From: an uncultured Fimbriimonadaceae bacterium
GTDB lineage: Bacteria > Armatimonadota > UBA10988
Length of the DNA stretch: 64,000 bases
NCBI GenBank assembly: GCA_964531735.1
Contig: CAZHGD010000012.1
Location: forward strand, 1 to 64,000
Direction: 5' to 3'
Below are positions 16,007 through 55,954 of the stretch, one piece after another (within the stretch, counting starts at the first letter, position 1; every line of letters begins with the position of its first letter). The notes beneath the pieces were generated by a model. That model made no database searches. It was not told the DNA's origin and worked only from the letters and a program-made list of their open reading frames with translations. Made by a program: the position numbers and the translations under genes.

Positions 16007-16088
16007 CTTGATGTCGATTGACGCCAAGGGCCGTCCGGTGATACCTACTGCGGACGCCCGTCGCGCGGCGTCGGCCCAGGATGCAACC

Positions 16089-19560: not shown

Positions 19561-19700
19561 CCATGACGCGCCCGTGGGACCGGCGTCCTCGCCGGTCGAT
19601 ACCATGACGCGCCCGTGGGACCGGCGTCCTCGCCGGTCGGTACGCGGCCTCCTCGGCGTGCGCCGTCGGCCCGTGGACCGCGGGCGTCTCGCCGGCCACC
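19561..19700. repeat. Tandem direct repeat, 41-nt unit, two exact copies plus a degenerate third, in a convergent intergenic region
   Basis: ccatgacgcgcccgtgggaccggcgtcctcgccggtcg occurs at 19561 and again at 19602. A diverged copy follows at about 19650. Confidence 0.6.
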
Positions 19701-23560: not shown

Positions 23561-23728
23561 CGTTCGGCCCTCCTTCGTGGGCCTCGTCACGCGCCATCGC
23601 CCGGTGGGGGCGCACAAGGGAGCCGAGGGACATGGGAATCCAGCACGGATCACCGCTCCGCTTTGGAGCGGTTCAGGTGTCGAAACCTGACTTGCCACGA
23701 TAACCGTTCTGGTCCGGCCCACTCGGCC

Positions 23729-23859
23729 TGGTCTCCCGGGGCGGGTTCGAACCGCCGACCACCTTGGTCTGGTAGATAACCGTCACGGCAACGGCCCGGC
23801 ACGGGCATGGTGGTGCGCAACGGACTCTGAAGGTGCTCTACCGACTGAGCTACCGGGAG
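23729..23859 (-). ncRNA. tRNA-like non-coding RNA with an expanded anticodon arm; candidate Y RNA (YrlA-like tRNA mimic) associated with rsr
   Basis: The minus-strand sequence has these parts:
- 7-bp acceptor stem CTCCCGG/CCGGGAG
- U8 A9
- D arm GCTC-AGTCGGTA-GAGC
- a 72-nt insert in place of the 17-nt anticodon arm
- TGGTC variable region
- T arm GGCGG-TTCGAAC-CCGCC
- discriminator A
- encoded CCA
It lies 170 nt upstream of rsr on the same strand. Confidence 0.55.
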
Positions 23860-32180: not shown

Positions 32181-33082
32181 GGGCGGAACGGCCGTTGCCC
32201 GCGGTCTGGTCGGCTGAGGAACTCGAGACCAGCAGTCGTCACGCGATCGAGCGGTTCATCGACGAGGCGGCCCAGTCGGCAGACTACGCGGCGGAGTTCG
32301 GTGCGCTGTTGCCGGTGGTGACTTCCTTGTTCACTGCCACGGGCGACCTGACTGTCTTCGATGCCCGCCTGTTTGCCGACCGGCCGGAGTTGGTCGAACC
32401 GGCCCGCTACCTGGCCGGTCCGCCACTGAGCGCCGATGACCTCGACACCTTTGTCGGTGGTCAGTCCAAGCGCAAGGGCATACCCATCCCGGTGTCCGAG
32501 CGGGTGGTGGGGGTGGTACGCCGGCTGCTCGATCCCTGTCGTTACCCGTGGCTCCAGCCTGAGCGGCCGCCCACCGACCTGGAGCGCGACGTGGCCATCC
32601 GCTGGACCACTGGCCTGCTGGCCGCCGAGCGTACGCGCACCGCCCGACGCAACCAGTCGAGTCGGCGCCAGGAGCAGGCTGTGGCCACGGCGCTGGCTGC
32701 CTGCGGCTTGCGCCGACTCGCGCCGAACCCGCGCGAGGTGGTGGCGCTCGACGAGCTGGAGCGCGGCTGCTTCTGCCGCGAAACCCAGATCGCCGGCACC
32801 AAGTGCGATGTGCCTGTCCGGTTGGGCGATGGTCGGCTGCTGGCCCTCGAGTGCAAGGTGTCGAACAGCGCCACGAACAGCGTCAAGCGCCTGCTCCGCG
32901 AGACCGGCGGCAAGGCCGAGAAGTGGCGGACCGAGTTCGGCAACCAGGTGATCACCGCCGCGGTGCTCGCCGGTGTGTTCCGTGTCGGCAGCTTGGTCGA
33001 CGCCCAGCGCGAGTTCGGTCTGGCCATCTTCTGGGAGCACGACCTGGCGCCGCTGACCACGTTCATCGGTGCCACCATGTGA
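32177..33082 (+). CDS. Type II restriction endonuclease, PD-(D/E)xK fold, XamI-like family (tentative)
   Basis: ATGA overlap with the methyltransferase stop. GGGGAG RBS. Catalytic-like D...ECK block (GTKCDVPVRLGDGRLLALECKVS). No other family signature. Confidence 0.65.
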   Translation: MRAERPLPAVWSAEELETSSRHAIERFIDEAAQSADYAAEFGALLPVVTSLFTATGDLTVFDARLFADRPELVEPARYLAGPPLSADDLDTFVGGQSKRKGIPIPVSERVVGVVRRLLDPCRYPWLQPERPPTDLERDVAIRWTTGLLAAERTRTARRNQSSRRQEQAVATALAACGLRRLAPNPREVVALDELERGCFCRETQIAGTKCDVPVRLGDGRLLALECKVSNSATNSVKRLLRETGGKAEKWRTEFGNQVITAAVLAGVFRVGSLVDAQREFGLAIFWEHDLAPLTTFIGATM

Positions 33083-38636: not shown

Positions 38637-38876
38637 ATGTGCACAGTGGCAGATCTGGTTGACGAACTGCTGGGGCTCAGCGATGAGCAACTCGGTGCGC
38701 GCTACACCATTGTGGGCGAGGGGGCACGGGCGCGCCTGAGAGCGCTGCATTGGGTCCTTCACGCCGACGAGGTGGCGCTGGTGCCCGACGGAGAGGAAGC
38801 CCCGCTCGCGCCAGCCGCACCGGTGGCCGCAGGGACGCTGGTCGTCTACATCGAAGGCACACCGCTCTCGTTCTGA
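38637..38876 (+). CDS. Small hypothetical acidic protein (79 aa)
   Basis: GGTGGA RBS-like element before the ATG. Protein-like composition. Sits between a strong promoter and the downstream fusion gene. Unsupported by homology. Confidence 0.35.
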   Translation: MCTVADLVDELLGLSDEQLGARYTIVGEGARARLRALHWVLHADEVALVPDGEEAPLAPAAPVAAGTLVVYIEGTPLSF

Positions 38877-38956
38877 CTAGTGCCCCGACGATCCGCTCAT
38901 GGGCATTGCCGCGGCGGATTCCTGACAGTGCGAACCAGCGCGGTAGGAGGCGGGCC

Positions 38957-41362
38957 ATGCAGACGGTACATCCGCTACTCGTCAACCGTGAACCACACAG
39001 CAGTCAGGGGCTGCGGTGGCAGAAATTGGTGGAGCCCACGCTCGCGTGCATCCAGCCGGCATACGACGGCGAGTTGTTCATCGGCGACTGCCGCTTGGCG
39101 CCGTCGGAATGGTACCGCACCGAGGAGTTGGTCACGCGCGAAGAGAAGAACCGCTTCACCGTGCGTGGCTTCGTCTTCGAGCGCACCGGCGTCGACGGTG
39201 ATCGCCCGATTGGCTGGGTGCAAGTACGCCACGATGTGTCGGCCAAGCTCTGCCATGGCAGCCTTTGTGAGGCCCTGCTGGCGCCACCCAGACGGCTGAC
39301 CAGCCGGCTCTTCCGCCTCCAGACTTCCGAACTGGCCGCGGTGTATGGCGTGGCCGGACTGGATGTCGCCAGCTACGTCAAGCCACTACCCAATGCGGGC
39401 GCCTTCCTAGAGGCGGCGGTGTACATGGCCCTGATGGCTGCCGTGCGTTTTGGTGGGCGCCCGCTCGGCCCTATTGAGCTGGCCGTTGCCCAACGCCGGT
39501 TCCTGGCTCGTCGCGGCAGGCATCTCGAGGATGACGAGATCCGCTGCGGCCAGCTTCGCCCTCGTGACCTCGTGACGCTGCTCAGTGATGCCAGCCTAAC
39601 CGGGTGCAGCGCCATCCACCACGTCGCCAGGCTGGACGCCGGTGACCCGGCGGCCGACCGCGCCTGGATCGTCGAACTCACCTGGTATGTCAGCGCAGGC
39701 TTGCCGGTTCTGTGTCTCGTAGACCCGGCGCGCCTGCATCACACCGAGGGTGACGGAGCCGAGTCGGCCCACGCCATCGTGATCGTCGGCCATGGCCGCG
39801 ACGACCTTCGGCGCCAGACCCTGGTGTACATGGATCCAGGCGAGCTTTCTGGGCCTTATATGCAGTGCACCATTCATGACCTGATGGATGCCGCGAAGGG
39901 CTTCGCGATGCACAACGGCGGCACCATGCAGGCGGTCGTACTGGCGCCGCTGGGCGCGGTCGGCCCGCTCATCTGCGACGATGTCGGCCGGCTGCTGGGT
40001 ACAGACCCACGCCCGCTGGGCATGCAGGTGGAGTTGCTGGCGCGGAAAGAGATCGCGCCTCGCCTCGCGCACATGGCTTTCGAAATGAACCTACAGGCCA
40101 AGGATCAGTGGCCGCGCAACCAACGTGGGGCAGTGTCGGCCTGCGCTGAGGCGGTACGCGCCCGCCAACAGCCTGAGCCGGCCTACGCCTGGCTACTCAC
40201 CCGAATGATGCCACGCGAACTGCGTCGGGACCTCGCCGGAAACCAGGCTCTGGGTCTGGTTCTTGACGCCACCGACCCGGTGCAGTCTAGGCCGCTCTGG
40301 CGTCTGGCCTGGAATGCGGTCGGCGAAAGCGGCGGCGGTCTGGCGCTTGACCCGCTACGGCCTACCGGGGCCGCGGGCAGCATCAGTCCAGGTGAGCCGC
40401 CACAGCCCTGGCAGGGCTCGCCAGACCACACCCGGCGGAAGAAGACCACACCAGCCGTCATCACGTCATGCTTTGCGCTCGGCCTCGACGAGTGTTTCGG
40501 CACTCTCCGGGAGCTGGGTGTCCAGGCGGTGGACATCTACCTGCCATCCGAAACCGACGGCCCGCTCTATGGGCAAGCCTGGGACGCGACGCACCGGTCC
40601 ATGCGGCACGACTTCGTCCCACCCCTGGCCAAACAGATCGGCGAACTGCTGCGCCATCACCGCCTAAAAGTGGTGGCCATCACCACCTCATTCAATGACG
40701 TCGCGGAGCCGGTGATCCGAGACGAGCAGCAGAACGCTGTCAGTTCTCTGGTGGCCGCCTTGAGGCTGGCCGACGAGCTCAAAGTCGCGACCGTCGAGGC
40801 GCGGGCCGGGCTGTGTGTCTACCATGACACCCAGGACCGTCTCGTCTATGACGACGACGAAGGCGGCATCAAGCGCTTGCTGGCATCGCTGACCCAAGTG
40901 GCGAAGAAGCGGGCCGAGCTAGGCATCAGCGCGGTGCTGGCACTGGAACCAGAGCCTGGCGAGCTGTTTGTGCTGCGCTCCATCGCGCAACTACGCTCGC
41001 TCGCCCGTGCAGTCAACGAGAGCGACGTACTGGCCGGCGTGGTCGGGCTGAATCTTGACATCGGTCACCTGCGCATCTGGAACAACGGCGGAACCATCCG
41101 TCCTGACGATCTACTGGACGACAACCAGCAGCCACTCCTGCCCATCTACGGTTGTCACGTATCTGACCATATCCTCAGGCACTGGGCGGATCTTCCGCTG
41201 GGCACGTTCCACCGTACCGAATCACTAAAGGAGTGGCTGGACTTCTACCAGACATTCTGCCGGGCCAGCCGTCCACACGTTTCGGTCGAACTGGAACGTG
41301 GCGGTCCCATTCACACCGTCGGGCGAAGCTATCGGGCGCTCAGACACGCGCTCGACAGGTAG
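38957..41362 (+). CDS. Fusion protein (801 aa): N-terminal domain of unknown function (possible papain-like Cys/His fold) plus C-terminal xylose-isomerase-like TIM barrel (sugar phosphate isomerase/epimerase family)
   Basis: TAGGAGG RBS 7 nt before the ATG at 38957. C-terminal motifs ALEPEPGE and LNLDIGH are typical of the AP-endonuclease-2/xylose-isomerase-like TIM barrel. The N-terminal region carries conserved Cys and HAIVIVGHG-type His blocks. Confidence 0.75.
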   Translation: MQTVHPLLVNREPHSSQGLRWQKLVEPTLACIQPAYDGELFIGDCRLAPSEWYRTEELVTREEKNRFTVRGFVFERTGVDGDRPIGWVQVRHDVSAKLCHGSLCEALLAPPRRLTSRLFRLQTSELAAVYGVAGLDVASYVKPLPNAGAFLEAAVYMALMAAVRFGGRPLGPIELAVAQRRFLARRGRHLEDDEIRCGQLRPRDLVTLLSDASLTGCSAIHHVARLDAGDPAADRAWIVELTWYVSAGLPVLCLVDPARLHHTEGDGAESAHAIVIVGHGRDDLRRQTLVYMDPGELSGPYMQCTIHDLMDAAKGFAMHNGGTMQAVVLAPLGAVGPLICDDVGRLLGTDPRPLGMQVELLARKEIAPRLAHMAFEMNLQAKDQWPRNQRGAVSACAEAVRARQQPEPAYAWLLTRMMPRELRRDLAGNQALGLVLDATDPVQSRPLWRLAWNAVGESGGGLALDPLRPTGAAGSISPGEPPQPWQGSPDHTRRKKTTPAVITSCFALGLDECFGTLRELGVQAVDIYLPSETDGPLYGQAWDATHRSMRHDFVPPLAKQIGELLRHHRLKVVAITTSFNDVAEPVIRDEQQNAVSSLVAALRLADELKVATVEARAGLCVYHDTQDRLVYDDDEGGIKRLLASLTQVAKKRAELGISAVLALEPEPGELFVLRSIAQLRSLARAVNESDVLAGVVGLNLDIGHLRIWNNGGTIRPDDLLDDNQQPLLPIYGCHVSDHILRHWADLPLGTFHRTESLKEWLDFYQTFCRASRPHVSVELERGGPIHTVGRSYRALRHALDR

Positions 41363-44090: not shown

Positions 44091-45548
44091 ATGGGCATCC
44101 AGTTTGAACTCGACTACCGCTACCTCATGACCGACCATGTCGGCGCGGCACACGGCCTGCGCGCCGATGACATCACGGCGCTGCAGCCGCTGTTCAACCG
44201 CATCCATCAGCAGATCGGCGCCGACGTCACGCCGGGCGGCAAGCACCGCGAGCTGGGCTTCTTCGACCTGCCGGACACGCAGGTCTCCGTGGCCGACGAG
44301 CTGGTGAAGACGGCCGCCGAGTTCAGCGGCCTGGCGGACGCGCATGTCGTGCTGGGCATCGGCGGCTCCTACCTGGGCGCCCGGATGCTGTTCGAGGCGC
44401 TCTGCCACAAGTTCCACAACGAGTTGCCGGCCGACCGCCGCAAGGCGCCGCGCATCTACTTCGAAGGCAACAGCGTCGACAACGACGCGTTTGTCGACCT
44501 GCTCGACCTGCTCGAGGGCCAACCGGTCACCGCGCACGTGGTGTCCAAGTCGGGCGGCACGCTCGAGACCGGCATGGCGTTCCGCCTGCTGCGCCAGCGG
44601 CTGGGCGACCGCGTCGCCGCCTGGGCGGTGACCACCGGGCACAAGACGCGACTCGACCGGTTTGTCGCGCAGCGGCAACTCCAAGGGCTGCGTGTGTTCG
44701 ACTTGCCGGACAACGTGGGCGGCCGGTTCTCGGTGCTCTGCCCGGTCGGCCTGTTCCCGGCGGCGATGATGGGCCTCGACGTCCACGCCATCCTCGACGG
44801 CGCCCGCGCCATGCGCGACCGCTGTGCGGCGACGGCCGACGTGCTGGACAACCCGGCCTACCTCTACGCCGCGCTGCAGTACCTGTCGCTGCTGCGAGGC
44901 CGCAACATCTCGGTGCTGTCGGTCTGGTCCAAGTGCCTCGAGTCCTTCGGGCTCTGGCTCGACCAGCTCTCGGCCGAAAGCCTCGGCAAGGATGGCCTGG
45001 GCCGGACGCCGCTGACCGCCGTGTGCACGCGCGAGCTGCACTCGCGCGGGCAGCAGCACCAGGAAGGCACGCGCGACAAGGTCGTGTGCAACCTGGTCGC
45101 CCAACGGCCGGGCCGCGAGCCGCTGGCGGCCGCCGCCGAGCCGGGCGACGATGAAGAGCGCGCCATCTACGCGTCCGGCCGCAAGCCGACCAAGGAAGAG
45201 GCGTCGGCGACCGACGGCTACTTCTACGCGGTGGGCCGCTCGCTGCCGGAGATCAACGATCTGGCCTACCAGGCCACCGACACCGCGTACGTCAAGGCGC
45301 AGCGGCCGGGCATGACCATGCGCATCGGCGCCATCGACGAGGCGCACCTCGGCGCGCTGATCTTCCTGTTCGAGCTGGCCACGCTGGTGGAGGGCCGCCT
45401 GATGGGCGTCAATCCGCTCAACCAGCCGGGCGTCCAGGACTACAAAGACTACCTGACGGGTTTGCTCGATGCGCCCGGTGGTGAGCGCTACGGCGCCGAA
45501 TGCCGCGCGCTGCGCTCGGGTGACAACCCGTTCGTGGTGCGCGCGTAG
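44091..45548 (+). CDS. pgi: Glucose-6-phosphate isomerase
   Basis: Phosphoglucose isomerase signatures LGIGGSYLGARM and HVVSKSGGTLET, and a C-terminal PGI block. Start at ATG 44091. Confidence 0.88.
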   Translation: MGIQFELDYRYLMTDHVGAAHGLRADDITALQPLFNRIHQQIGADVTPGGKHRELGFFDLPDTQVSVADELVKTAAEFSGLADAHVVLGIGGSYLGARMLFEALCHKFHNELPADRRKAPRIYFEGNSVDNDAFVDLLDLLEGQPVTAHVVSKSGGTLETGMAFRLLRQRLGDRVAAWAVTTGHKTRLDRFVAQRQLQGLRVFDLPDNVGGRFSVLCPVGLFPAAMMGLDVHAILDGARAMRDRCAATADVLDNPAYLYAALQYLSLLRGRNISVLSVWSKCLESFGLWLDQLSAESLGKDGLGRTPLTAVCTRELHSRGQQHQEGTRDKVVCNLVAQRPGREPLAAAAEPGDDEERAIYASGRKPTKEEASATDGYFYAVGRSLPEINDLAYQATDTAYVKAQRPGMTMRIGAIDEAHLGALIFLFELATLVEGRLMGVNPLNQPGVQDYKDYLTGLLDAPGGERYGAECRALRSGDNPFVVRA

Positions 45549-45596
45549 GCCGGCCGAAGTCGCACCAGCCTGGGGTGGCGCGAGCCCGCCCCAGGC

Positions 45597-45890
45597 TCAG
45601 GCGCGGCTGGCCGCCCACGCGCGCAGCGCCTCGCGGACGGTCACGTAGGCCGGTGGCGGCGGCACCTCGAAGCTCATCGGGCGGCCGTCGCGCGGATGCA
45701 CGAAGCGGATGCGCACCGCGTGCAGCGCTTGGCCGGGCAGTTGCGCCACCGCTGCGGCCACCGGTTCGGGTAACGGGCCATAGGCGGCGCGCCGTTTGGT
45801 GCCGTAGACCTTGTCGCCCAGCAGGGGATGGCCCAGGTAGTTGCAGTGGACGCGCACCTGGTGGGTGCGGCCGCTGTGCAAGCGGCACAG
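45597..45890 (-). pseudogene. Duplicated 3' fragment of rluD (about 98 codons), not attached to an N-terminal half
   Basis: Encodes LCRLHSGRTHQVRVHCNYLGHPLLGDKVYGTKRRAAYGPLPEPVAAAVAQLPGQAL..., matching the C-terminus of the full-length rluD at 47082-48107. Positions 45720-45890 are identical to 47211-47381. Upstream ORF sequence is unrelated. Confidence 0.65.
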
Positions 45891-45991
45891 TGGGCGGTGG
45901 CGCGGTGGGCCTGGCTTCACAAGCGCGGAGCGCCAGCGGCTGGGGCCGCAGACAAGTGCACTGTCACCAGAACTCAGCCCGTCATCGGCAG

Positions 45992-46426
45992 TCAGCCAAG
46001 AAGCGCGCCATCGCGATCGGTGGACTTGCCGCGAATCACGATCGGGCCGTCCCGTCGTATGGCGTTGTCGATGCACTCGTGACACCACATCATGTGCATG
46101 TCCGCGGGCGCCCCAGGAACGTCGTCACTGACGTCCAGGATCGCCGCATAGTCGTCCGTAGTGTCGAGCACCAGGCCGCATCTGCCACAACGCTCGAAGA
46201 AGCGGCCAGACATCTCGTCCTTCCACCTCAGCTTCAATGTTGCACCCTTTCGGGGTGTCAAAGCTGGGGATGGTCTCGCGCTACGGGCCGCATCAGGGAC
46301 CCGCACCTTCTCGCCGCAGCGGCACTTACCGATGACACCGGCCTTGTCGTCCGGGACGGAGTGTGTAGCACCACAGCCGGGGCACTTGAACTCGATCGGC
46401 ATCGGAAGGTCTCCCGCTTGTCCCAT
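45992..46426 (-). CDS. Hypothetical double zinc-ribbon protein
   Basis: CPGCG...CRCG and CGRCG...CHEC cysteine pairs. Start chosen at MGQAGDLPMPIEFKCPGCG. Lower local GC. Confidence 0.5.
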   Translation of the reverse strand: MGQAGDLPMPIEFKCPGCGATHSVPDDKAGVIGKCRCGEKVRVPDAARSARPSPALTPRKGATLKLRWKDEMSGRFFERCGRCGLVLDTTDDYAAILDVSDDVPGAPADMHMMWCHECIDNAIRRDGPIVIRGKSTDRDGALLG

Positions 46427-46490
46427 GTCCCCCCCGGCACGGGCTTCACCGGCCCGTCGTTTTGCCCTCTCCGGCTTCGCCAGGGCTGGC

Positions 46491-46955
46491 CTACATCGTG
46501 CCGCCATGGGCTTTGAGCAGGGCGATTACCGCGGCGTGTTGCGTGTAACCTGTCTCCACCGCCCATTGGAGTGCAGTCCAGCCGTCGTCAGTGTGTGACG
46601 AGGATCTGGCATTCACCTCAGCCCCTCTGTCCAGTAGTAGCTTTGCCACCTTTGTGTGGCCGAATGTGGCGGCTGCAATCAGGGCGGTGCGGCCACCCGT
46701 AACGTAGTTGGCATCACCACCCCGGTCCAAGAGCAGCCGAACCACCTCGGTGTGGCCGCTGGCGGCGGCTGCGTCCAATGGGCCATAGGCATGCGGGGTC
46801 GGCGGGGCATTGACGTCGGCCCCCCTCTCCAGGAGTTGCTTGACCTCTTTGATGTGGCCTTCGGCAGCAGCCTCCTGCAGCAATTTGGAGAGCTGTTCTG
46901 CGCTGCAGTCCGACTTGTCATTGGAGGCGAACGCCCGGCGCATCCACTCGAGCAT
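46491..46955 (-). CDS. Ankyrin-repeat protein (about 155 aa, at least 3 repeats)
   Basis: Ankyrin repeats: GHIKEVKQLLERGADVNA, GHTEVVRLLLDRGGDAN, TALIAAATFGHTKVAKLLLDRGAEVNA. GGAG RBS before the ATG at 46955. Lower GC than its surroundings. Confidence 0.7.
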   Translation of the reverse strand: MLEWMRRAFASNDKSDCSAEQLSKLLQEAAAEGHIKEVKQLLERGADVNAPPTPHAYGPLDAAAASGHTEVVRLLLDRGGDANYVTGGRTALIAAATFGHTKVAKLLLDRGAEVNARSSSHTDDGWTALQWAVETGYTQHAAVIALLKAHGGTM

Positions 46956-47081
46956 GGTGATCTCCGCCACGGCGGTTCGCCGAACCGGTGGCCTCTTCCT
47001 CCTGCGCAGCGCGCAGGGCAGACTGTTGCCCACCATCAAGGAGTTCGACGTTACTCGTGGCGTGGCGGGCACTAGCCCGCC

Positions 47082-48107
47082 CTACTGCTGCTGCGCCCCG
47101 CACGACATCTCCCGCAACGCCGCCCGCACCGCCTCGAACTCCGCTGGCGGCGACACTTCGAAGGTCATCTCGCGCCCGTCGCTGGGGTGCAGAAAGCGTA
47201 TCCGCCAGGCGTGCAGCGCTTGGCCGGGCAGTTGCGCCACCGCTGCGGCCACCGGTTCGGGTAACGGGCCATAGGCGGCGCGCCGTTTGGTGCCGTAGAC
47301 CTTGTCGCCCAGCAGGGGATGGCCCAGGTAGTTGCAGTGGACGCGCACCTGGTGGGTGCGGCCGCTGTGCAAGCGGCACAGCAGCTCGGCGGCCAGGCCG
47401 TAGCGGGCTTGGCAGAACAGCGTGGTACGGGCGGGTTTGCCGTCTTCGCGGACCGCGATCTTCTCTTTCTGCGTCGGGTGGCGTCCGAGCGCCGCGTCGA
47501 TCGTGGTTTCGTCGAACGCCGGGTCGCCATGGACCAGCGCCAGGTACTCGCGCCCGGCGGTGCGTTCGCGCAGTTGCGCCTGCAGGCCCTGGTGGGCCTC
47601 GTCGTGCTTGGCCACCACCAGCAGGCCGGTGGTGTCTTTGTCCAGGCGGTGGACGATGCCCGGCCGGATGGCGCCGCCAATGCCCGACAGATCGTCACAA
47701 TGGGCCAGTAGCGCGTGCACGAGCGTGCCCGACCAGTGCCCGCGCGAAGGGTGGGTGACCATGCCGGCAGCCTTGTTGACCACCAGCAGGTCGGCGTCCT
47801 CGTAGACGATGTCGAGCGGGATCGGCTCGGGCTCGAGGGTCAGCGGCACCGGCGCCGGTATGGCCACCTCGATGACCTGGCCGGCTTTGGGCTGGAGGGC
47901 CGGCTTGCCCGGCTCGCCGTCGACTTGCACGTCGCCCGATTCGATCAGGCGCTTGCCCTGCGAGCGGGTGAGCTGCGGGCAGACCTCGGTGACCAGCAGG
48001 TCGAGACGCCGGCCGGCCTGGTCGTCGGTCACCGTCCAGACACAGGACTCAGGCAGGTCGGGCGTCGGATTGCTCGCGGCTGTCTTGGAGGTCACACCAC
48101 AGCACAT
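47082..48107 (-). CDS. rluD: 23S rRNA pseudouridine synthase, RluA/RluD family
   Basis: S4 domain at the N-terminus. Catalytic HRLDKDTTGLLVVAK motif. C-terminal RluD blocks. The start is uncertain: the ATG at 48107 overlaps lspA by 56 nt, and a GTG at 48095 or further downstream is possible. Confidence 0.85.
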   Translation of the reverse strand: MCCGVTSKTAASNPTPDLPESCVWTVTDDQAGRRLDLLVTEVCPQLTRSQGKRLIESGDVQVDGEPGKPALQPKAGQVIEVAIPAPVPLTLEPEPIPLDIVYEDADLLVVNKAAGMVTHPSRGHWSGTLVHALLAHCDDLSGIGGAIRPGIVHRLDKDTTGLLVVAKHDEAHQGLQAQLRERTAGREYLALVHGDPAFDETTIDAALGRHPTQKEKIAVREDGKPARTTLFCQARYGLAAELLCRLHSGRTHQVRVHCNYLGHPLLGDKVYGTKRRAAYGPLPEPVAAAVAQLPGQALHAWRIRFLHPSDGREMTFEVSPPAEFEAVRAALREMSCGAQQQ

Positions 48108-48534
48108 AGCACACGTAGACGGTCATCCCGCAGGTCACGCCGATGTCGGCAACGTTGAAGTCGGGCCAGACGAAGCCGATGCGGGCGATATGGAAATGGA
48201 TGAAGTCGACCACCTGGCCACCGCGCAGGACGCGGTCGACCAAGTTGCCCGCGGCCCCAGCAGCCACGAGGGCCAGGGCGTAGCACGGCAGCACCGGCAG
48301 GGCCAGCACCTGCCGCCGGAAGTAGACCACCGCGCCCAGCGCGCCGAGGCCAATCAGCACGAACAGCCAGCGCGCGCCGTTGAGAATGCCGAAGGCGGCG
48401 CCGCTGTTACTGGTCAGGGTCAGGTCAAGCCAACCGGGCACCACGGTGACGTGGTGCCCGGGCACACGGAACAGATGCACGACCAGCAGTTTGGTGGCCT
48501 GGTCCAGCAGGAGCCAGGCCACGGCCACGCCCAC
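48049..48534 (-). CDS. lspA: Lipoprotein signal peptidase II
   Basis: NSGAAFG, VVDFI and FNVADIGVT signature blocks. Start ambiguous: GTG at 48534, or ATG at 48609 overlapping the upstream gene. Confidence 0.85.
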   Translation of the reverse strand: MGVAVAWLLLDQATKLLVVHLFRVPGHHVTVVPGWLDLTLTSNSGAAFGILNGARWLFVLIGLGALGAVVYFRRQVLALPVLPCYALALVAAGAAGNLVDRVLRGGQVVDFIHFHIARIGFVWPDFNVADIGVTCGMTVYVCYVLWCDLQDSREQSDARPA

Positions 48535-48560
48535 GAACCGACTGGCTCGTACCGTGGGCG

Positions 48561-48947
48561 TCAGCCCTCTTCCAGCATCCGCTGGCAATCCACACACGTC
48601 GCCGCCCATGGGATCCGATCCAAGCGCGCTTCCGGTATCTCACAACCGCACATCTCACAGATACCGAAGCTACCGTCGTCGATGCGCTCAAAGGCCAACT
48701 CGATCTGGGCCAGATTCTGATGGACCGTCTGGCCCAGAATCTGGTCTTTCTCGCGTTCGGAGGCTTGGGCCGCAATGTCGGCCGGCACGTCGTCGCTGTC
48801 GGAGAAGCTCTCCAGCGAATCCTTGGCCTGGCGGGAGCTCTCCGCCAACTCGCGCTCGACCCGCAGGAGCCGCTCGCGCTCCGCCGTCAGCAGCTCCGTG
48901 AAATGCTCCAGATCCAGATCCGGGCGCATCACCGCAGGGTCACTCAT
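48561..48947 (-). CDS. DksA/TraR-family C4-type zinc-finger regulator (YteA/general stress protein 16O-like)
   Basis: Acidic coiled-coil N-terminus. CEMCGCEIPEARL...ATCVDCQ four-Cys zinc finger. Confidence 0.85.
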   Translation of the reverse strand: MSDPAVMRPDLDLEHFTELLTAERERLLRVERELAESSRQAKDSLESFSDSDDVPADIAAQASEREKDQILGQTVHQNLAQIELAFERIDDGSFGICEMCGCEIPEARLDRIPWAATCVDCQRMLEEG

Positions 48948-48972
48948 CGACCTCCTCCTCAGGCCTCATCGG

Positions 48973-49836
48973 TCAGGTGGCCGGCACCACGCCCACTTGC
49001 CGCCAGTGCTCCTCGACCGCCTCTTCGACGGGCCGCAGCGGGGGCAGGCCGGCAGCCGCCCAACGTTGCCCGTCCAGAACAGAAAAAGCCGGCCGCCAGG
49101 CCGGCGCACCCCACGCTTCGGTGGTCACCGGCTCCACCCCCACCGTCGGGTCGAGCCGTTGCGCCAACCACTTCGCGAAGCTATACCACGTTCCTCCACC
49201 GAGGTTGGTTACATGATAGGTCCCGAACTCGGCCGCGGACGACACCAGTGTCAGTATCGCCGCCGCCAGGTCATGACTGTAGGTCCGATTGCAGGTTTGG
49301 TCACAAACCACTCGCACCGGCTCGCCGCGCAACAGACGCTGGCCGACCGCGTCCACGAAGTTGCGTCCGCCGTCGCCAAACAGGCCCGCCGTGCGCACGA
49401 TCCAGTGCCGCGGCTGCCGCTGCCGCACCCACACCTCACCAAGCAGCTTGCTGCAACCATAGACGCTGTGCGGCCCGGTGCGGTCATCTTCCTGGTACGG
49501 CGCACTCGCGCTGCCGTCGAAGACATGGTCGGTGCTCACCTGCACCAGCACCATCTGGCGCCGCGCGGTCTCTTCGGCCAGCACCGCCGGGCCGAGCACG
49601 TTGGCCCGCATCGCCGCGGCGATGTTCGTCTCGGCCCCGTCGACATTGGTGTAGGCCGCCGCGTTGATGACCACCGCCGGCTCATACCGGGCGAGGGCGG
49701 CGGCCACCGCCGCGGACTCGGCGATGTCCAGCTCGGTTCGCGTCAGGGCGACCAGCTCCAGATGCTGTCCGGCACGCTGCAGCGCCTGGCCCAGCAGACC
49801 GCCGGCGCCCGTGACCAGTATCCGTCGGCTGCCCAT
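48973..49836 (-). CDS. rfbD: dTDP-4-dehydrorhamnose reductase
   Basis: ILVTGAGGLLG Rossmann motif. NAAAYTNVD. STDHVFDG. YGCSKLLGE catalytic YxxxK. Confidence 0.85.
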   Translation of the reverse strand: MGSRRILVTGAGGLLGQALQRAGQHLELVALTRTELDIAESAAVAAALARYEPAVVINAAAYTNVDGAETNIAAAMRANVLGPAVLAEETARRQMVLVQVSTDHVFDGSASAPYQEDDRTGPHSVYGCSKLLGEVWVRQRQPRHWIVRTAGLFGDGGRNFVDAVGQRLLRGEPVRVVCDQTCNRTYSHDLAAAILTLVSSAAEFGTYHVTNLGGGTWYSFAKWLAQRLDPTVGVEPVTTEAWGAPAWRPAFSVLDGQRWAAAGLPPLRPVEEAVEEHWRQVGVVPAT

Positions 49837-49946
49837 CGCCTGACCTCGTCCTGCGTATCCGATGCCTAACGCCCGTCGTGGCGCCGAAGTTCCAGCGCCA
49901 CCGGCCAGGATGTGTTAGCCTGCCGGTGGCAACGGAGACCCGCAGC

Positions 49947-50984
49947 ATGGCGCAACGCTACCTTCGCGGGGCCGACGGCGCACTGGCCCAGTTCCGTGCG
50001 ACCCGCCGGCCATTTCACTTCGCCGGCACCTGTCCCAGCGACCACGCGGCCTGGCGCCGCGCGTTCGAGCAGGAACTGCTCGCCTGTCTCGGGCCGACAC
50101 CCGAGCCGGTCGCGCTGGCCGCCGAGGTGACCAGCCGCACCGACTGCGGCGCCTACGTGCGTGAACGAGTCCTGTTCGACAGCGAAGCCTATGCCACGGT
50201 TTCGGCCTGGGTGCTGATTCCGAAGCGCGCCACGCCGGAGCAACCGGCGCCGGCCGTGATGGGTCTGCACGGGCACGGCCCCGAAGGCAAGGACGCGCTC
50301 GTCGGGGTCAATGCGGCGGGCGAGCCGGTCGACACCGGCGCCTACCACGGCATCGGCCAGAAGCTGGCCGAAGCCGGCTACGTGGTGATCTGTCCCGACT
50401 GGCGCGGCTTCGGCGAGCGCCAGGACACCGACGAGTGGGTCCGCCGGCCGACTCGCGACGGCTGCAACGTGCTCTACCTGGCCACCGGCTATCTCGGCTA
50501 CCACTCGCTGGCGCTGCAGATCCACGATGGTCGCCGCACGCTCGACTACCTGCTGACGCGCCCCGAAGTGCGGCCGGACCGCGTCGGCGCCATCGGTCTC
50601 AGCTTCGGTGGCACTATGACCACCTATCTGTCGGCGCTGGACACGCGCATCGGCTGCGCGGTGATCGGCTGCTATCTGAGCGGGCTCGATGACGCGCTGG
50701 TGCGCGCCAACTTCTGCGGTGCGCAGTACCTGCCCGGACTGGGCCTGCTGGCCGACATCCCCGACGTCGCCGGCCTGATCGCGCCGCGCCCGATGCTGGC
50801 GCAGATCGGCGAGCGCGACCTGTGCTTCACCGTGGACGACGCCATGGCGGCCTACGACCATGTCGCGCGCATCTACGCCGCCGCCGGCGTGCCGGAGCGC
50901 TGCGCGGTGGACCGGCATCCGGATGGCCATGAGCTGAACCCGACCACCGCCCTGGCCTGGTTCGAAAGGTGGCTCGGCGCATGA
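49947..50984 (+). CDS. Alpha/beta-hydrolase (dienelactone hydrolase/acetyl-xylan-esterase-like)
   Basis: GGAGAC RBS. Nucleophile elbow GLSFGG. HG oxyanion motif MGLHGHG. Stop overlaps the next start (ATGA). Confidence 0.8.
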   Translation: MAQRYLRGADGALAQFRATRRPFHFAGTCPSDHAAWRRAFEQELLACLGPTPEPVALAAEVTSRTDCGAYVRERVLFDSEAYATVSAWVLIPKRATPEQPAPAVMGLHGHGPEGKDALVGVNAAGEPVDTGAYHGIGQKLAEAGYVVICPDWRGFGERQDTDEWVRRPTRDGCNVLYLATGYLGYHSLALQIHDGRRTLDYLLTRPEVRPDRVGAIGLSFGGTMTTYLSALDTRIGCAVIGCYLSGLDDALVRANFCGAQYLPGLGLLADIPDVAGLIAPRPMLAQIGERDLCFTVDDAMAAYDHVARIYAAAGVPERCAVDRHPDGHELNPTTALAWFERWLGA

Positions 50985-53266
50985 CCACCGCGTCGCTCCT
51001 GGCGGTCTGGTTGCTGCTGGCCACACCGGTGGCGCGCGTCGAGTGCGACGCGACCGGCTGGCGGCTGACCGCCGAGTCCGGCGGGCGGCACCGCGTCCTC
51101 GTCCAAACGGCCGGTTACCAGGCCGCGGACGCGGCCAACGCACCGGTGTTCGCCACCTCGGGTGCGCCGGCCGGGTCGTCGCCCGCGCGCGTCGCCTACC
51201 GGCTCACCGGTGCCGGAGCGCCCGCGGCCGAGGTGGCGGCGCACTGCCAGCCGCTGCCCAACGGGGTGACGGTGGACTGGCGCCTGACCTGGCGTGGCGG
51301 CCAGCGCACGTGGAGCGGCTGGACCAGTGGCCTGGTGCATCAGTGGGGCGAAGCGCCCACCGGGGCCACCACTCAGGCGCTGGTCGACTGGCGGCGCCCC
51401 GATGGTACTCGTGCGGGCGAAGTCGCCGGCGACACGCCCTATCCGGTGCCGGGCGGCCAGATTCGCCGGGTCGTCTTCGGCGATCTCGCCCTGGTCATGG
51501 TCACGCCGACCTACGACCCGGACTGGATCTACAAGCGCGAGCTGGGCCGGGTCCGCCTGGTCCGCTGGCAGCCGGTCGACGGTGAAGTCCGCTACCGGGT
51601 CACCTACCTGGTGGTGCCGGCTGGCTCGGACCAGCCGGCCGACTGGGCGGCCACCGCGGCCGGGCGGCCGCTCGCGCTGTCGCTGACCACCGGCCGCGCC
51701 GCACCGCTGTTCGTGCCCGGCGAGCCACTGCGCGTGCAGGCGCGGCTGGCCAATGTCACCGCGGCGGCGCAGTCGAGCACCTTGCGGCTCACCGCGTACA
51801 CGTACCGGGGCCAACCCCTGCTGAACCGCGAGGAGCCCATCGCGCTGGCCGCCGGAGCCGACCGTCTGCTGGACCTGACTCTGCCGCCGGCCGAGCGGGG
51901 CGTGGTGTTCGTCACCGCGCGCTTGAACTGGCCCGGCGGCGAGTGGACCGAGCGGCTCAACCTGGGCATCTTGCCCGAGCGCCGCGCCGACGGCGTACGC
52001 GAGGCCTCGCCGTTCGGGCTCGCGGCGGTAACGGCGAACCCCGCGCACTACCCGGACCAAGCCGCGCTGGAGACGGTTCTGCCGCTGGTCGAGCGGGTCG
52101 GTTGCCGGCGCATCCGTGGCGGCTGGTACCCGGTCGATCCGGAGGCCACCGATGCCACCGTGGCCGCGGTGCGCGCCCAGTTGGCGCAGTTGCGGCGCCA
52201 TGGCGTGCTGCCCTATGTGCAGTTGCCGGGCGAGCCGTGCCAGGCCGGTGGTGAGGCCGCCCTGACCGCGCGCTACCGCGGCGCCATCGGCCGGTTCGCC
52301 TGGGCCAGCGACTATGTCGAGGTGGGCAACGAGCTGAACCTGGGCGGGCTGAAGGCGCACGACTACGTCGCGCGCCTGTTGCGGCCGGTGGCCGCCGCCA
52401 CGCGCCAGGCTGCGCCGCACGCCAAGGTGCTCAGCATGGGTTTTGGCGGCGTGTTACCGGACTGGCTGAACGAGTTCGTCGCCGCGGGCGGTCTCGATCT
52501 CGTGGACATCCTGTCCATCCATCCGGGTTGCCAACCGCGCTCGCCCGAGTTCTGGCAGGGCTGGCGCGGCTGGGTCTTTCGCCCACAAGTGCTGGATGCC
52601 TTGCGCGCGGCCAGGGCCAAGGGGAAGGCCGTCTGGATCACCGAGGCCTATGCGCCCACAGTGCCCGGCCGGGCCGGCCTGGACCACCGCACCGCCGCCG
52701 ACTACCTCGTGCGCAGCTATGTCTGCGCGCTGGCCGCCGGTGTGCAGCACATCGCCTGGTACCAGTTCCAGGACGGTGTCTGGCACAGCCGGCGACCCGA
52801 TGCCGACGATGGCGAGTACAACTACGGCATCGTCTACACCGACTTGTCACCGAAGCCGGCCTACGTCGCCTATGGCGCCATGACCGAGCAACTCGAAGGG
52901 GCGACCTATGTCGGCCGGCTCGAGCTGGGCGCCGACGACCTGTACGGCGTGCGCTTCCGGCGCGGCGACGGCGTGGTCGATGTGCTGTGGAGCTGCCGCG
53001 AGAAGCACGAGACCGATGTGGCCTGGTGGCCGCCGGAGCAGTTCAGGCACCTCTCGCGGCGGGCGGGCGAGCCGTGGCAGACCCGCTGGCGCCAGGCGGT
53101 CACCGTCCCGCTGCCCGCGGCGGGCTCGGTGACCGTCACCGACCTGATGGGCAACCCGCGCACCCTCACGTCCCGCGCGGGGCGCGTCGAGCTGCTGCTG
53201 GACGGCTCGCCGCAGTATGCCACCGGCTTGGGGGCTCTCCCGCTGAAGCCGGTGTTCTGGGAGTGA
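50981..53266 (+). CDS. Secreted clan GH-A glycoside hydrolase (GH5/GH39-like TIM barrel) with N-terminal beta-sandwich region
   Basis: Signal peptide MTTASLLAVWLLLATPVARV. Acid/base motif EVGNELN. Nucleophile motif VWITEAY. Confidence 0.8.
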   Translation: MTTASLLAVWLLLATPVARVECDATGWRLTAESGGRHRVLVQTAGYQAADAANAPVFATSGAPAGSSPARVAYRLTGAGAPAAEVAAHCQPLPNGVTVDWRLTWRGGQRTWSGWTSGLVHQWGEAPTGATTQALVDWRRPDGTRAGEVAGDTPYPVPGGQIRRVVFGDLALVMVTPTYDPDWIYKRELGRVRLVRWQPVDGEVRYRVTYLVVPAGSDQPADWAATAAGRPLALSLTTGRAAPLFVPGEPLRVQARLANVTAAAQSSTLRLTAYTYRGQPLLNREEPIALAAGADRLLDLTLPPAERGVVFVTARLNWPGGEWTERLNLGILPERRADGVREASPFGLAAVTANPAHYPDQAALETVLPLVERVGCRRIRGGWYPVDPEATDATVAAVRAQLAQLRRHGVLPYVQLPGEPCQAGGEAALTARYRGAIGRFAWASDYVEVGNELNLGGLKAHDYVARLLRPVAAATRQAAPHAKVLSMGFGGVLPDWLNEFVAAGGLDLVDILSIHPGCQPRSPEFWQGWRGWVFRPQVLDALRAARAKGKAVWITEAYAPTVPGRAGLDHRTAADYLVRSYVCALAAGVQHIAWYQFQDGVWHSRRPDADDGEYNYGIVYTDLSPKPAYVAYGAMTEQLEGATYVGRLELGADDLYGVRFRRGDGVVDVLWSCREKHETDVAWWPPEQFRHLSRRAGEPWQTRWRQAVTVPLPAAGSVTVTDLMGNPRTLTSRAGRVELLLDGSPQYATGLGALPLKPVFWE

Positions 53267-53366
53267 CACGGCTCGCGCCGAACGGCCTCGCGAGGCGGCA
53301 GGAACAGCCTGACGGATGGCCAACGGCGGGCCTGCCACGCGTCCACGGCGCGTGCGAGAGGTGGCC

Positions 53367-54617
53367 ATGGCTGACCAGCACGACATTCGGGTACTTCGCG
53401 ACCTCGTCCAGCGCTATGCCGACGTCGCCGCGCTGCCGGTGCAGGACGAGCGCCGCGCCCTGTGGCGCGAGCACCACTCGCTGCGCCCGACCCGGCCGCT
53501 GATCATGGCCACCTTCGGCATGTGGAACGTCTGGTGCCGCGAGGTGTTCGGCAATCAGCAGATGCAGTGCCAGGACCCGTTCTACCGCGAGCACGAGCGC
53601 GGCCTGCGGATGCACCTGTTCGCCCACGACATCGGCGACGACGTGATCCAGGAGCCGTGGCTCACCCAGCGCGCCGCAGTGCGCTATGGCTGGGACGACA
53701 TGTGGGGCCTGCCAATCAAGCGGGTCCCGTCGTCGGTCGAGGGCGGCGCCTGGGGCTTCGACGCGGTGCTCCGCGAGTGGTCCGACGTCGACCGGCTGGT
53801 GGCGCCGCGCCACGTTGTCGATGAGGCGGCCACCGACCGCGCCGTCGCGAAGCTCCACGAGGCCGTCGGCGACCTGCTGCCGATCAACGTCGACCGCTCG
53901 CCGATCTGCAAGGGGTTCGGCGCCGACATCTCGACCATGCTGGCGCGGCTCCGCGGGTTCGAGCAGATCATGTACGACATGTACGAGGCGCCGAACGAGC
54001 TGCACCGCCTGCTGGCCTTCATGCGCGATGGCACGCTGGCCAACCAGGCTGAGGCGGTCACCGCCGGCGACTGGTCGCGCACCAGTGGCGAGTGCCAGGG
54101 CATGACCTACTGCCACGAACTGCCGCCGCCGGCGGCGAACGTCTTTGGTCAGTCGCTGGACAGCCTGTACGCGTTCAGCGCCAGCCAGGAGTTCACGCTC
54201 ATTTCGCCGGCGCAGCACGAGGAGTTCATGCTCCAGTACCAGCGGCCGATCATGGAGCAGTTCGGCCTGAGCGCCTACGGCTGCTGTGAGAACCTGACCG
54301 AGAAGATCGACCTTCTGCGCTCCGTGCGGAACCTGCGGCAGATCGCCGTGGCGCCGACCGCCGAGGTGGCCAAGTGCGCCGAGCGCATCGGTGCCGACTA
54401 CGTCTTCTCGTGGCGGCCGAACCCGACCGACATGGTCTGCTGCGGCTGGGACGAGGACCGCATCCGCCGCATCATCGGCGACGGCCTGCGCGCGGCGCGC
54501 GGCTGTCGCGTGCACCTGCACCTCAAGGACATCGAGACGGTGGAGGGCGACCCGACCCGCCTGGCGCGCTGGGTCGGCATCGTGCGCGAGGTGGCCGACG
54601 AGGTCTGGGCCAACTGA
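53367..54617 (+). CDS. Hypothetical protein (416 aa)
   Basis: GAGAGGTGG RBS before the ATG at 53367. Consistent periodicity. No confident family assignment. Confidence 0.6.
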   Translation: MADQHDIRVLRDLVQRYADVAALPVQDERRALWREHHSLRPTRPLIMATFGMWNVWCREVFGNQQMQCQDPFYREHERGLRMHLFAHDIGDDVIQEPWLTQRAAVRYGWDDMWGLPIKRVPSSVEGGAWGFDAVLREWSDVDRLVAPRHVVDEAATDRAVAKLHEAVGDLLPINVDRSPICKGFGADISTMLARLRGFEQIMYDMYEAPNELHRLLAFMRDGTLANQAEAVTAGDWSRTSGECQGMTYCHELPPPAANVFGQSLDSLYAFSASQEFTLISPAQHEEFMLQYQRPIMEQFGLSAYGCCENLTEKIDLLRSVRNLRQIAVAPTAEVAKCAERIGADYVFSWRPNPTDMVCCGWDEDRIRRIIGDGLRAARGCRVHLHLKDIETVEGDPTRLARWVGIVREVADEVWAN

Positions 54618-54744
54618 CGCGCACGAGTCTTGCGCTGCCGTTGCGCGGCGACGAGCCGGGCCAATCTGCACATGGGACAATGGCGCCGAGGGGGGCAGGC
54701 AGCCACTTCACTGGCCGCGTCGGCGGCCGGAAAGGGCAGGTCCC

Positions 54745-55329
54745 ATGCACAGACTGCGGGTCGGGGCGCTCGTCCTGGCGCTGCTCATCGCGCCGAACGC
54801 CCTGGCCACCTACACGTCCAACGGCAGCGCCGCCGATCAGGCGGCCCTCGTCTCGATGCTCACCAGCGCCTGCAACCAGAGCGCCGACTTCAAGAGCGAG
54901 TACGACACCATCGCGGCCGACAGCACCCACAGCATCCGCTACGACGTCGGGCGCAGTCAGAGCGGCGTGCTGATCGACGCCTACAGCTCCAACGCGGTCG
55001 ACCTGGATGACCTCAGTGCCCTGCCGGTCACTCCGCCGGCCGGCCATCCCAACGCGATGACGCAGTCGCAGGCGCTCAAGCACGTCATGGCCGAGCGCTG
55101 GTACAAGGCGACGCTGCCATGTGCCGAGTACCTGGAGTGCCACGAGAAGGGCGGCATGGTCGGTGAGAACGCCCTGCGTAGCGAGGCCGGACAGTCGCCG
55201 GTCGTCAAGCACTCCGGTACGCCGATCCCGGGTGGCGGCCTGACCGTGACCATCACCTATGGGAACGGCGGCAGCGAGTCCTGGACCATCAACTCGGCGG
55301 GCAACATCACCGCCATCGCCTACCACTGA
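54745..55329 (+). CDS. Secreted hypothetical protein (194 aa)
   Basis: AAAGGGCAGG RBS-like element. Signal peptide MHRLRVGALVLALLIAPNALA. Confidence 0.6.
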   Translation: MHRLRVGALVLALLIAPNALATYTSNGSAADQAALVSMLTSACNQSADFKSEYDTIAADSTHSIRYDVGRSQSGVLIDAYSSNAVDLDDLSALPVTPPAGHPNAMTQSQALKHVMAERWYKATLPCAEYLECHEKGGMVGENALRSEAGQSPVVKHSGTPIPGGGLTVTITYGNGGSESWTINSAGNITAIAYH

Positions 55330-55341
55330 GGAGACCACACC

Positions 55342-55866
55342 ATGAGCATTCGCAGCCTGTTCGCGTACGGTCTCGCGGTGGTGATGTTCGTCGGCCTGGT
55401 CAGTTGCGGCGGCGGCGGTGGCGGCACTGGGTCGAGCAACACCACGACGGCCCAGTTCGACGACGCCAACCTGACCGCCAACCAAAGCACGATCCAGGCG
55501 GCGGCGCAGCGGGCCACGCTGATCGTCGTGGCCACCATCCAGTCGATCGGCACGCCGCCCGACTGCTGGAGCGGCTTTGTGGCCACCCGACAGACGGTCA
55601 CCTACGCCGTGTCGCCCACCATCCCGGCGGTCAAGGGCAGCTACAGCGGCTCGACGCTGACGGTCAACCACGTGCTGGTGCGCTACTCGCGCCACGCGCG
55701 CTCGGATGGCCAGGTGGGCCTGTCCACCACGCTCTTCGCCACTGGCAATCAGGTCATCCTGATCGTCGGCCCGCCCAGCGGCAGCGAGGCGGACGACGTC
55801 AGCGAGAACTGCAGCACCTTGCCCTACAGCGCGAACAACCTGGCAGCGCTACAGGCGCTGTTGTAG
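55342..55866 (+). CDS. Hypothetical lipoprotein (174 aa)
   Basis: GGAGACC RBS. Signal peptide with LVSC lipobox followed by a Gly-rich linker. Confidence 0.65.
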   Translation: MSIRSLFAYGLAVVMFVGLVSCGGGGGGTGSSNTTTAQFDDANLTANQSTIQAAAQRATLIVVATIQSIGTPPDCWSGFVATRQTVTYAVSPTIPAVKGSYSGSTLTVNHVLVRYSRHARSDGQVGLSTTLFATGNQVILIVGPPSGSEADDVSENCSTLPYSANNLAALQALL

Positions 55867-55954
55867 GTCGAGACGGCGCGCGCGGTCGCGCCCGCTTGCC
55901 CCTGACGCACCGATCGCCTATGCTCGCAGGCGCGATGACGAGAGGATGCGCCCG

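Follow-up and report, generated by a model that had tools for sequence, protein, structure and literature searches.

An insert at the 3' end of rluD

Positions 1 to 64,000 of contig CAZHGD010000012.1, from an uncultured Fimbriimonadaceae bacterium of the phylum Armatimonadota (assembly GCA_964531735.1), form the stretch that we analyzed and refer to here as the window; our subject is a short insert at the 3' end of its rluD gene, where the terminal part of that gene occurs twice around two cargo genes. The intact rluD (47082..48107, minus strand) encodes a protein of 341 amino acids (aa) with the S4 (PF01479) and PseudoU_synth_2 (PF00849, E = 2.6e-28) domains of Pfam. It is the last gene of a conserved operon, following rmlD (48973-49836), a dksA/traR-type gene (48561-48947) and lspA (48049-48609), all on the minus strand and assigned with Pfam. 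Downstream of rluD lie an ankyrin-repeat gene, a gene for a 136-aa protein with zinc-ribbon motifs, a noncoding spacer and a displaced fragment of the rluD 3' end. Beyond these, outside the insert, the convergent plus-strand gene pgi (44091..45548; 485 aa, Pfam PGI) forms the left flank, with a host-typical codon adaptation index (CAI) of 0.69.

The two rluD ends share an exact direct repeat of 173 nucleotides (nt), here called R, at an offset of 1491 nt. Copy R2 (47209..47381, minus strand) comprises codons 243-300 of the intact rluD and encodes LCRLHSGRTHQVRVH...PGQALH, and copy R1 (45718..45890, minus strand) lies within the displaced 3' fragment. A preliminary description of this DNA had given an exact repeat of 171 bp (45720-45890 and 47211-47381), which is real but had missed two bases at one end. 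No other repeat of at least 35 nt with comparable identity was found in the 64-kb window, and with R unique as a long repeat, chance is excluded as its origin. Our repeat search joined R to a longer pair of 269 nt (45622-45890 and 47113-47381) with 90% identity, and in a gapped alignment the homology ran past both stop codons into a common hairpin core, GGGCGGGCT.G.GCC, for a total of ~317 nt. The ~145 nt of further homology beyond R, through stop codons and terminator hairpins, are ~70% identical, as had been stated for the distal part: the first 108 nt after R contain 32 differences (76/108 identical, 70.4%). The change from 173/173 to 76/108 identical positions at 45717/45718 is abrupt, and the first 36 tail codons are free of indels. 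Because the 57 adjoining codons of R carry no difference while the tails differ, we read 45717/45718 from the alignment as a recombination breakpoint.

We refer to the segment following R in the intact gene as the new tail (47082..47208, minus strand, ending in …AWRIRFLHPSDGREMTFEVSPPAEFEAVRAALREMSCGAQQQ*) and to that following R1 as the old tail (45597..45717, minus strand, ending in …AVRIRFVHPRDGRPMSFEVPPPPAYVTVREALRAWAASRA*); both terminal peptides had been quoted correctly before. The new tail, with the rluD stop codon, is contiguous with the cargo and shows 70% nucleotide identity to the old tail, which is in frame with R1 and has its own stop codon. Directly 3' of the rluD stop lies a terminator-like GC hairpin (47064..47081, minus strand; -21.7 kcal/mol, z = -2.1). 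The old tail and the convergent pgi are separated by a strong hairpin (45567..45597, minus strand; -37.9 kcal/mol, z = -2.8), which is probably a bidirectional terminator and whose core aligns with that of the hairpin after the new tail in the common motif given above.

Differences between the tails fall mainly at synonymous and variable positions, with a nonsynonymous divergence (dN) of ~0.2-0.3 and a synonymous divergence (dS) of ~0.75-0.8 over the 108 indel-free nucleotides, and all nine invariant or near-invariant RluD columns of the tail region are kept in both. Given these values and the kept residues, both tails read as functional rluD alleles and look like the ends of working rluD genes from two lineages, under coding constraint. 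With 36 open reading frames (ORFs) of the window as codon-usage reference, the CAI of the old tail is 0.88 (96th percentile of host windows) and that of the new tail 0.58 (15th percentile); their GC contents at third codon positions (GC3) are 0.925 and 0.905, respectively. RluD proteins of Armatimonadota are slightly nearer the old tail than the new one (mean score, 93 versus 87). Because of codon adaptation and position, the new tail adjoining the cargo and the old one the pgi terminator, the old tail is probably the original host 3' end, now a pseudogene fragment, and the new tail the incoming replacement.

The two tails might also be imagined to have diverged in place after an old local duplication, with a nonfunctional copy drifting to 70% identity while recurrent conversion preserved R, and with no foreign allele involved. 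Gene conversion is indeed common between direct repeats 1.3 kb apart, and the dN/dS ratio of 0.25-0.43 (20-36 codons, with wide error) comes near the ~0.5 expected under neutral drift of one copy. We nevertheless consider such an origin very unlikely, since the displaced tail shows neither indel nor premature stop in 36 aligned codons and keeps the nine constrained residues as well as its GC3 of 0.925 and CAI of 0.88, which is unexpected after ~15% neutral change. The scenario further needs a fragment without use to have survived for long, and every conversion tract to have ended at one and the same base.

Two other explanations of the second rluD end were rejected. Derivation of the displaced fragment from a paralogous RluA-family gene is ruled out by the identity of R to rluD and by the homologous terminator, and a programmed switch between two C termini is ruled out because direct repeats give an irreversible deletion. 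We also asked whether the 3' half of R shares the codon bias of the cargo (7/26 A/T-ending codons), which was not significant (P of 0.03-0.06, with similar windows elsewhere in rluD).

The copies of R are 1318 nt apart (45891-47208), and this interval consists of the new tail with its stop codon, the ankyrin gene, the gene for the 136-aa protein and noncoding segments of 126 nt and 101 nt. The repeated unit as a whole measures 1,491 bp and consists of R, the alternative tail with its terminator, the ankyrin gene, the zinc-ribbon gene and the 101-nt spacer that separates the latter from the displaced rluD fragment (45891..45991, minus strand). This spacer is unrelated to rluD and showed neither a stable structure (fold z = +1.1) nor an Rfam match; an Rfam scan of 44500-48500 likewise gave no match. 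Its junction with R1, at 45890/45891, is one end of the insert.

An inverted repeat, GCCGCT-TGCAC-AGCGGC, occurs on the minus strand at 47361-47377 and 45870-45886, 5-21 nt within the 5' edge of each R copy. Palindromes of this kind are frequent by chance in DNA of 70% GC. A model patterned on the element e14 (see below) would place a site-specific crossover here, and we note the repeat as a lead only.

The first cargo gene (46491..46955, minus strand) encodes an ankyrin-repeat protein of 154 aa as annotated at NCBI, or of 193 aa from an alternative GTG start at 47072, as called in Logan. The ankyrin assignment made earlier was borne out: the protein matches Ank_2 with E = 2.7e-36 (124 bits against a cutoff of 27.3), three further Ank models also exceed their cutoffs, and a family of direct repeats at 46618-46874 (D2) is the same ankyrin array seen at the DNA level. 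The homologue search with this protein that the preliminary description had suggested returned generic ankyrin proteins as nearest relatives, with at most 52% identity. The second cargo gene (45992..46402, minus strand, as called on Logan unitig L001) encodes the 136-aa protein, with an N-terminal zinc ribbon and a second pair of CxxC motifs. A word-seeded search of 5.8 billion proteins retrieved only the protein itself. In a full HMMER scan of 1.84 billion representatives, matches were confined to residues 1 to ~50, which correspond to a widespread N-terminal zinc-ribbon module. A single-sequence AlphaFold model reached predicted local distance difference test (pLDDT) values of 82-84 for residues 1-35 and low values elsewhere, so that the N-terminal ~35 residues are predicted to form a zinc ribbon. 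Of the double zinc ribbon proposed before, the CxxC pairs and the N-terminal part hold, whereas the remainder is modeled with low confidence. An exact-protein look-up with a 171-aa version of this ORF and with full-length RluD found nothing.

The cargo is foreign in its codon usage. Its GC content is 0.63, compared with ~0.70 in the flanks, and its GC3 is 0.73-0.74, compared with 0.83-0.93 in most host genes; the lower GC had been seen before, and the codon-usage check agrees with it. The CAI values of 0.41 (ankyrin) and 0.43 (zinc ribbon) lie below the host range of 0.46-0.79 (median, 0.69), so that both genes are more poorly adapted than every host gene of the window, and among host windows of the same length they fall at quantiles of 0.0004 and 0.003, respectively. 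Comparison of the cargo DNA with plasmids and phages gave no match. IMG/VR contained no match to the zinc-ribbon protein, only generic ankyrin matches (36-39%) and no exact match to the new tail, and PADLOC and PHROGs returned generic ankyrin-repeat matches, one weak zinc-ribbon match and nothing else. No sigma-70-like promoter was found in the segment, where promoter and terminator consensus scans were uninformative, and ARAGORN found no tRNA genes. As had been noted for the inserted segment, no integrase or other mobility gene was found: Pfam searches detected no recombinase, transposase or phage domains in the insert or in 37 further ORFs of the window, taken from a GC3-filtered list of which a few ORFs were left unscanned.

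The repeat in sequencing reads and the locus in relatives

Unitigs of the Logan collection (k = 31) from the runs SRR9860463 and SRR9878565 cover the locus on all sides of R. One of them (L001; SRR9860463, four samples) equals window positions 45861-47238, that is, the unique 1318 nt with 30 nt of R on each side. A second (L085; SRR9878565) equals 47352-56243 with 100% identity and ends 30 nt into R, and two more (L098 and L099, from both runs) start at 45747, again 30 nt into R, and include both the old tail and pgi. Because the unitigs end exactly 30 nt within R on four arms, R is present in the reads on all four arms and in two runs, and at the level of k-mers it is no quirk of assembly. 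Misassembly, against which the preliminary description had advised a check, is accordingly countered for the four repeat arms, which are recovered at 100% identity; the integrated form and a circular form are not distinguished by the graph, which fits the integrated form and a 1,491-bp circle plus an empty site equally.

This leaves room for an assembly artefact of another kind, in which rluD on the chromosome would run uninterrupted into the old tail, and in which the 1,491-bp unit, a separate circle or a piece of another strain, would have been threaded into it through R. The unitig links (old tail to R, R to cargo, cargo to R and R to the rluD body) fit such a circle and empty site. We regard this as improbable to a high degree. 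A 1.5-kb circle without a replication gene is implausible as a stable replicon, the same unitig set was found in at least two runs, with the cargo unitig in four samples, and a collection of 15 billion proteins contained no full-length RluD with the old tail, the RluD cluster having a single member. Moreover, 173 nt is shorter than normal paired-end inserts, and assemblers resolve repeats of this size reliably. Even if the artefact were real, the circle would then be this element in its excised form.

Identical RluD, ankyrin and zinc-ribbon proteins were found together on one NCBI contig of 81,828 bp belonging to a metagenome-assembled genome (MAG). The next RluD in the search of 5.8 billion proteins was 59% identical and came from Armatimonadetes MAGs. 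In three relatives from the Armatimonadota (L082, L100 and L102), whose RluD proteins are 57-59% identical, the order rmlD-dksA-lspA-rluD is kept, and the genes on the 3' side of rluD are one for an S24 peptidase and prfB, separated in L082 and L100 by an AP-endonuclease gene. By this comparison, the rluD 3' end appears as a synteny break in the clade.

Two sister lineages are much closer, with 89.5% (L086; SRR36158023) and 92% (L087; SRR6476074) nucleotide identity over the equivalents of window positions 48152-51726 and 48448-50975, respectively. Both encode an identical DksA-like protein, and both contigs end in lspA, just before rluD. These ~90% lineages are ruled out as donors of the second rluD end, since they show at least 77% identity in every 120-nt window, compared with 70% between the tails. 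No closer relative came to light: an RluD scan of genome contigs was saturated by conserved motifs (best matches, 48-50%) and gave no close relative, an exact 32-mer of R had no match among metagenome contigs, and the peptide of R and the old tail reached 68% over 40 aa at best in those contigs, nothing close. In cluster look-ups, most host proteins, like the cargo proteins, had no relative at 90% identity or above. Since the host proteins equally lack such relatives, the absence of cargo homologues is uninformative as to empty sites.

Origin of the insert

The anatomy corresponds to an insertion into the rluD 3' end by DNA bringing its own rluD 3' end and leaving rluD intact, and to this extent the integration proposed in the preliminary description stands. 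The specific event proposed there, a single crossover between the resident gene and a foreign rluD 3' allele, does not account for the repeats. With a uniformly foreign allele and one crossover, they would be ~70% identical throughout, instead of 173 nt at 100% followed by 70%, and the 173-nt identity therefore needs an extra step. The mosaic of 100% and 70% identity needs either a donor already identical to the host over R, or a later gene conversion, or a one-step duplication of the host R. The data are compatible with Campbell-type, RecA-dependent integration as well as with site-specific integration.

Among the possible origins we rank first, if tentatively, the remnant of an integrative element that carried its own rluD 3' end and lost its integrase, leaving an islet similar to the cis-mobilizable elements (CIMEs) discussed below. 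According to this reading, recombination in the last third of rluD would have brought in the 1,491-bp unit. The incoming DNA would have supplied its own rluD 3' end, so that rluD stayed intact as a host 5' part joined to an incoming tail, and the original 3' end (R, the old tail and its terminator) would have been displaced next to pgi as a dead fragment. The vehicle was most likely a site-specific integrative element with an attachment site containing the 3' end of its target gene, like e14 and phage 21 in icd, of which only the integrase-less remnant would be left. The 173-nt identity may be a later product of RecA-dependent exchange between the copy on the element and that of the host, either by gene conversion or by a round of excision and re-entry via the homologous segment. 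Transcription of the promoter-less cargo probably comes from read-through of the rmlD-dksA-lspA-rluD operon. If the two R copies recombined, the unit would be lost as a 1,491-bp circle and rluD would regain the old tail.

The closest precedent is the cryptic prophage e14 of E. coli K-12, whose excision recombines icd with the icdC fragment (PMC13626634). Both in e14 and phage 21 and at the present locus, the insertion lies within the 3' end of a housekeeping gene, a replacement 3' end is supplied that leaves the gene intact, and the displaced original 3' end persists as a pseudogene fragment at the far end. The insert described here retains repeats of the target-gene 3' part at both ends, and the intact rluD is contiguous with it. 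We compared icd with icdC at the ends of e14 (NC_000913) and found 153/165 identical positions, reaching into the terminator and with an abrupt 5' edge; the homology in our pair likewise continues through the stop codon into the terminator, which speaks for the same type of origin. The systems differ in that e14 measures 15.2 kb and carries intE and xisE, whereas the rluD insert measures 1.3 kb and has no recombinase, so that it lacks the integrase expected of this class. They also differ in the repeat, uniformly ~93% identical in e14 but 100% identical over 173 nt and then 70% in rluD, and in target and host, icd in E. coli as opposed to rluD in Armatimonadota.

The loss of the integrase has its parallel in the CIMEs, decayed remnants of ICEs (integrative and conjugative elements) or IMEs (integrative and mobilizable elements), which in streptococci occupy the 3' ends of fda, rpsI and rpmG and measure 1.2-13 kb (PMC7563491). 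The rluD insert resembles them in its few cargo genes, in its size, which falls within this range, in its 3'-end site and in its direct repeats. As in that class, genes for recombination, conjugation or mobilization, including integrase and transfer genes, are absent while cargo is kept. CIMEs, by comparison, are defined by attachment (att) sites that they share with an ICE or IME family already known, and for rluD no such family is known; the rluD insert also stands alone and not in tandem with an active element. Repeats of CIMEs are tens of bases long; those described here have 173 nt and a further 145 nt of diverged coding homology. Staphylococcal cassette chromosome (SCC) and pseudo-SCC elements at the 3' end of rlmH (orfX) in staphylococci offer a further likeness, as they leave a 23S rRNA modification gene undisrupted, are flanked by direct repeats and in some cases have no recombinase. 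They use ~15-bp core sites for the Ccr serine recombinases, do not replace a gene end of ~300 nt, and differ in host and target, which are unrelated.

Several points weigh against the remnant of an integrative element. Pfam detected no integrase, excisionase or pseudogene of either in the insert, which, with two intact genes and 227 nt besides, is too compact to hold an integrase remnant. A conversion step is needed for the 173-nt identity, which some one-step RecA or template-switch models give directly, and the identification of the native tail draws solely on 37-38 codons per tail and on position. In the three family-level relatives examined, neither pgi nor the cargo lies 3' of rluD, so that the pgi-rluD junction is not demonstrably ancestral. 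No empty site and no polymorphism between occupied and unoccupied sites was found, there being no sufficiently close assembled genome. A second same-strand copy of the rluD 3' end was seen in 0/92 other rluD loci, which also gave no integrase-bearing element using rluD, and the literature searched contained nothing relevant on rluD as a bacterial attachment site (attB). No rluD-targeting element was found in these 92 loci, plasmids, phages or IMG/VR, in a clade that is almost unsampled.

A rather unlikely alternative, which we rank second, is an integrase-independent capture in one step. A chromosomal fragment from a related member of the Armatimonadota (rluD 3' end, ankyrin gene, zinc-ribbon gene) would have used its rluD segment as a one-sided homology anchor, and its other end would have been joined at the start of R, either illegitimately or through a replication template switch, so that the host R was duplicated. 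The routes conceivable are RecA-dependent Campbell insertion of a circularized fragment, homology-facilitated illegitimate recombination (HFIR) and switching of the microhomology-mediated break-induced replication (MMBIR) type. A single event would here yield both the 100% identity in R and the 70% identity in the tail, as both R copies would be host sequence. The exact identity over 173 nt lies within the range of a RecA anchor, as expected for single-arm integration, and the absence of a recombinase gene, the likeness of the compact insert to a slice of a gene neighborhood and the terminator homology, which would make the donor segment a true orthologous rluD end from a related lineage, also fit. 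HFIR has been documented in several naturally transformable bacteria, and, as in Campbell single-arm integration, it joins a single stretch of homology to unrelated DNA beside it and needs no recombinase of the element (PMC6382021).

Against such a capture stands, first, the composition of the incoming DNA. The new tail has a GC3 of 0.905 and the cargo one of 0.73-0.74, so the donor DNA was itself composite, which would suit a mobile element better than plain chromosomal DNA; such a mosaic is to be expected of an element imitating the end of its target gene. A plain Campbell crossover with a diverged allele, moreover, gives no identical repeats. The documented HFIR events come from laboratory transformation, which sets them apart from the present case; they mostly delete or replace recipient DNA, and normally do not duplicate it. 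Neither the donor sequence nor a donor neighborhood was found in any collection searched.

We consider it clearly doubtful that the 1,491-bp unit is a self-sufficient, recombinase-free cassette, a small circle made mobile solely by a homology arm derived from the conserved 3' end of a housekeeping gene. If it were, the cassette would enter and leave chromosomes through host RecA alone, with the spare tail keeping the target gene intact. It would amount to a natural "knock-in," expressed by operon read-through and spreading among related lineages by transformation.

Other features of the window and significance of the locus

Several features elsewhere in the window were noted in passing. A tRNA-like RNA of 128 nt (23732-23859, minus strand) lies directly upstream of a Ro60/TROVE-vWA gene (21995-23722, minus strand). 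It matches the full Rfam tRNA model (46.5 bits, E = 1e-8), an insertion of 66 nt standing in place of the anticodon loop, and it was missed by ARAGORN and by a gathering-threshold scan of the whole window. Bacterial Y RNAs of the YrlA type are known to be arranged in this way beside rsr. Two tandem units of 41 nt, 98% identical, are located at 19561-19642, a short distance downstream of the gene for a GH123-like glycoside hydrolase (15960-19511). On the plus strand, 30480-33082 probably encodes a type II restriction-modification pair, with N6 DNA methylase-like and XamI-family endonuclease genes whose CAI values of 0.52 and 0.62 are below the host median. The gene at 38750-41362 (plus strand) encodes an 870-aa protein with a xylose-isomerase-like TIM-barrel domain; its CAI of 0.46 and GC3 of 0.75 are the lowest of the host genes, and it may be another acquired gene.

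The insert at rluD is a real but fairly ordinary integration footprint of a known kind, with no recombinase left, in a phylum of which few genomes have been sampled. Should the cassette move without a recombinase, it would represent an under-appreciated route of gene gain; otherwise what remains is a decayed islet of an ordinary sort, carrying two cargo genes. Excision is predicted to give a 1,491-bp circle and an rluD restored with the other tail. The mosaic of 100% and 70% identity may serve as a useful marker of recombination between incoming and resident copies of a gene end. The locus provides a small, clean footprint of gene-end replacement in Armatimonadota, a phylum with hardly any described mobile elements, and it suggests the rluD 3' end as a possible site of integration there.

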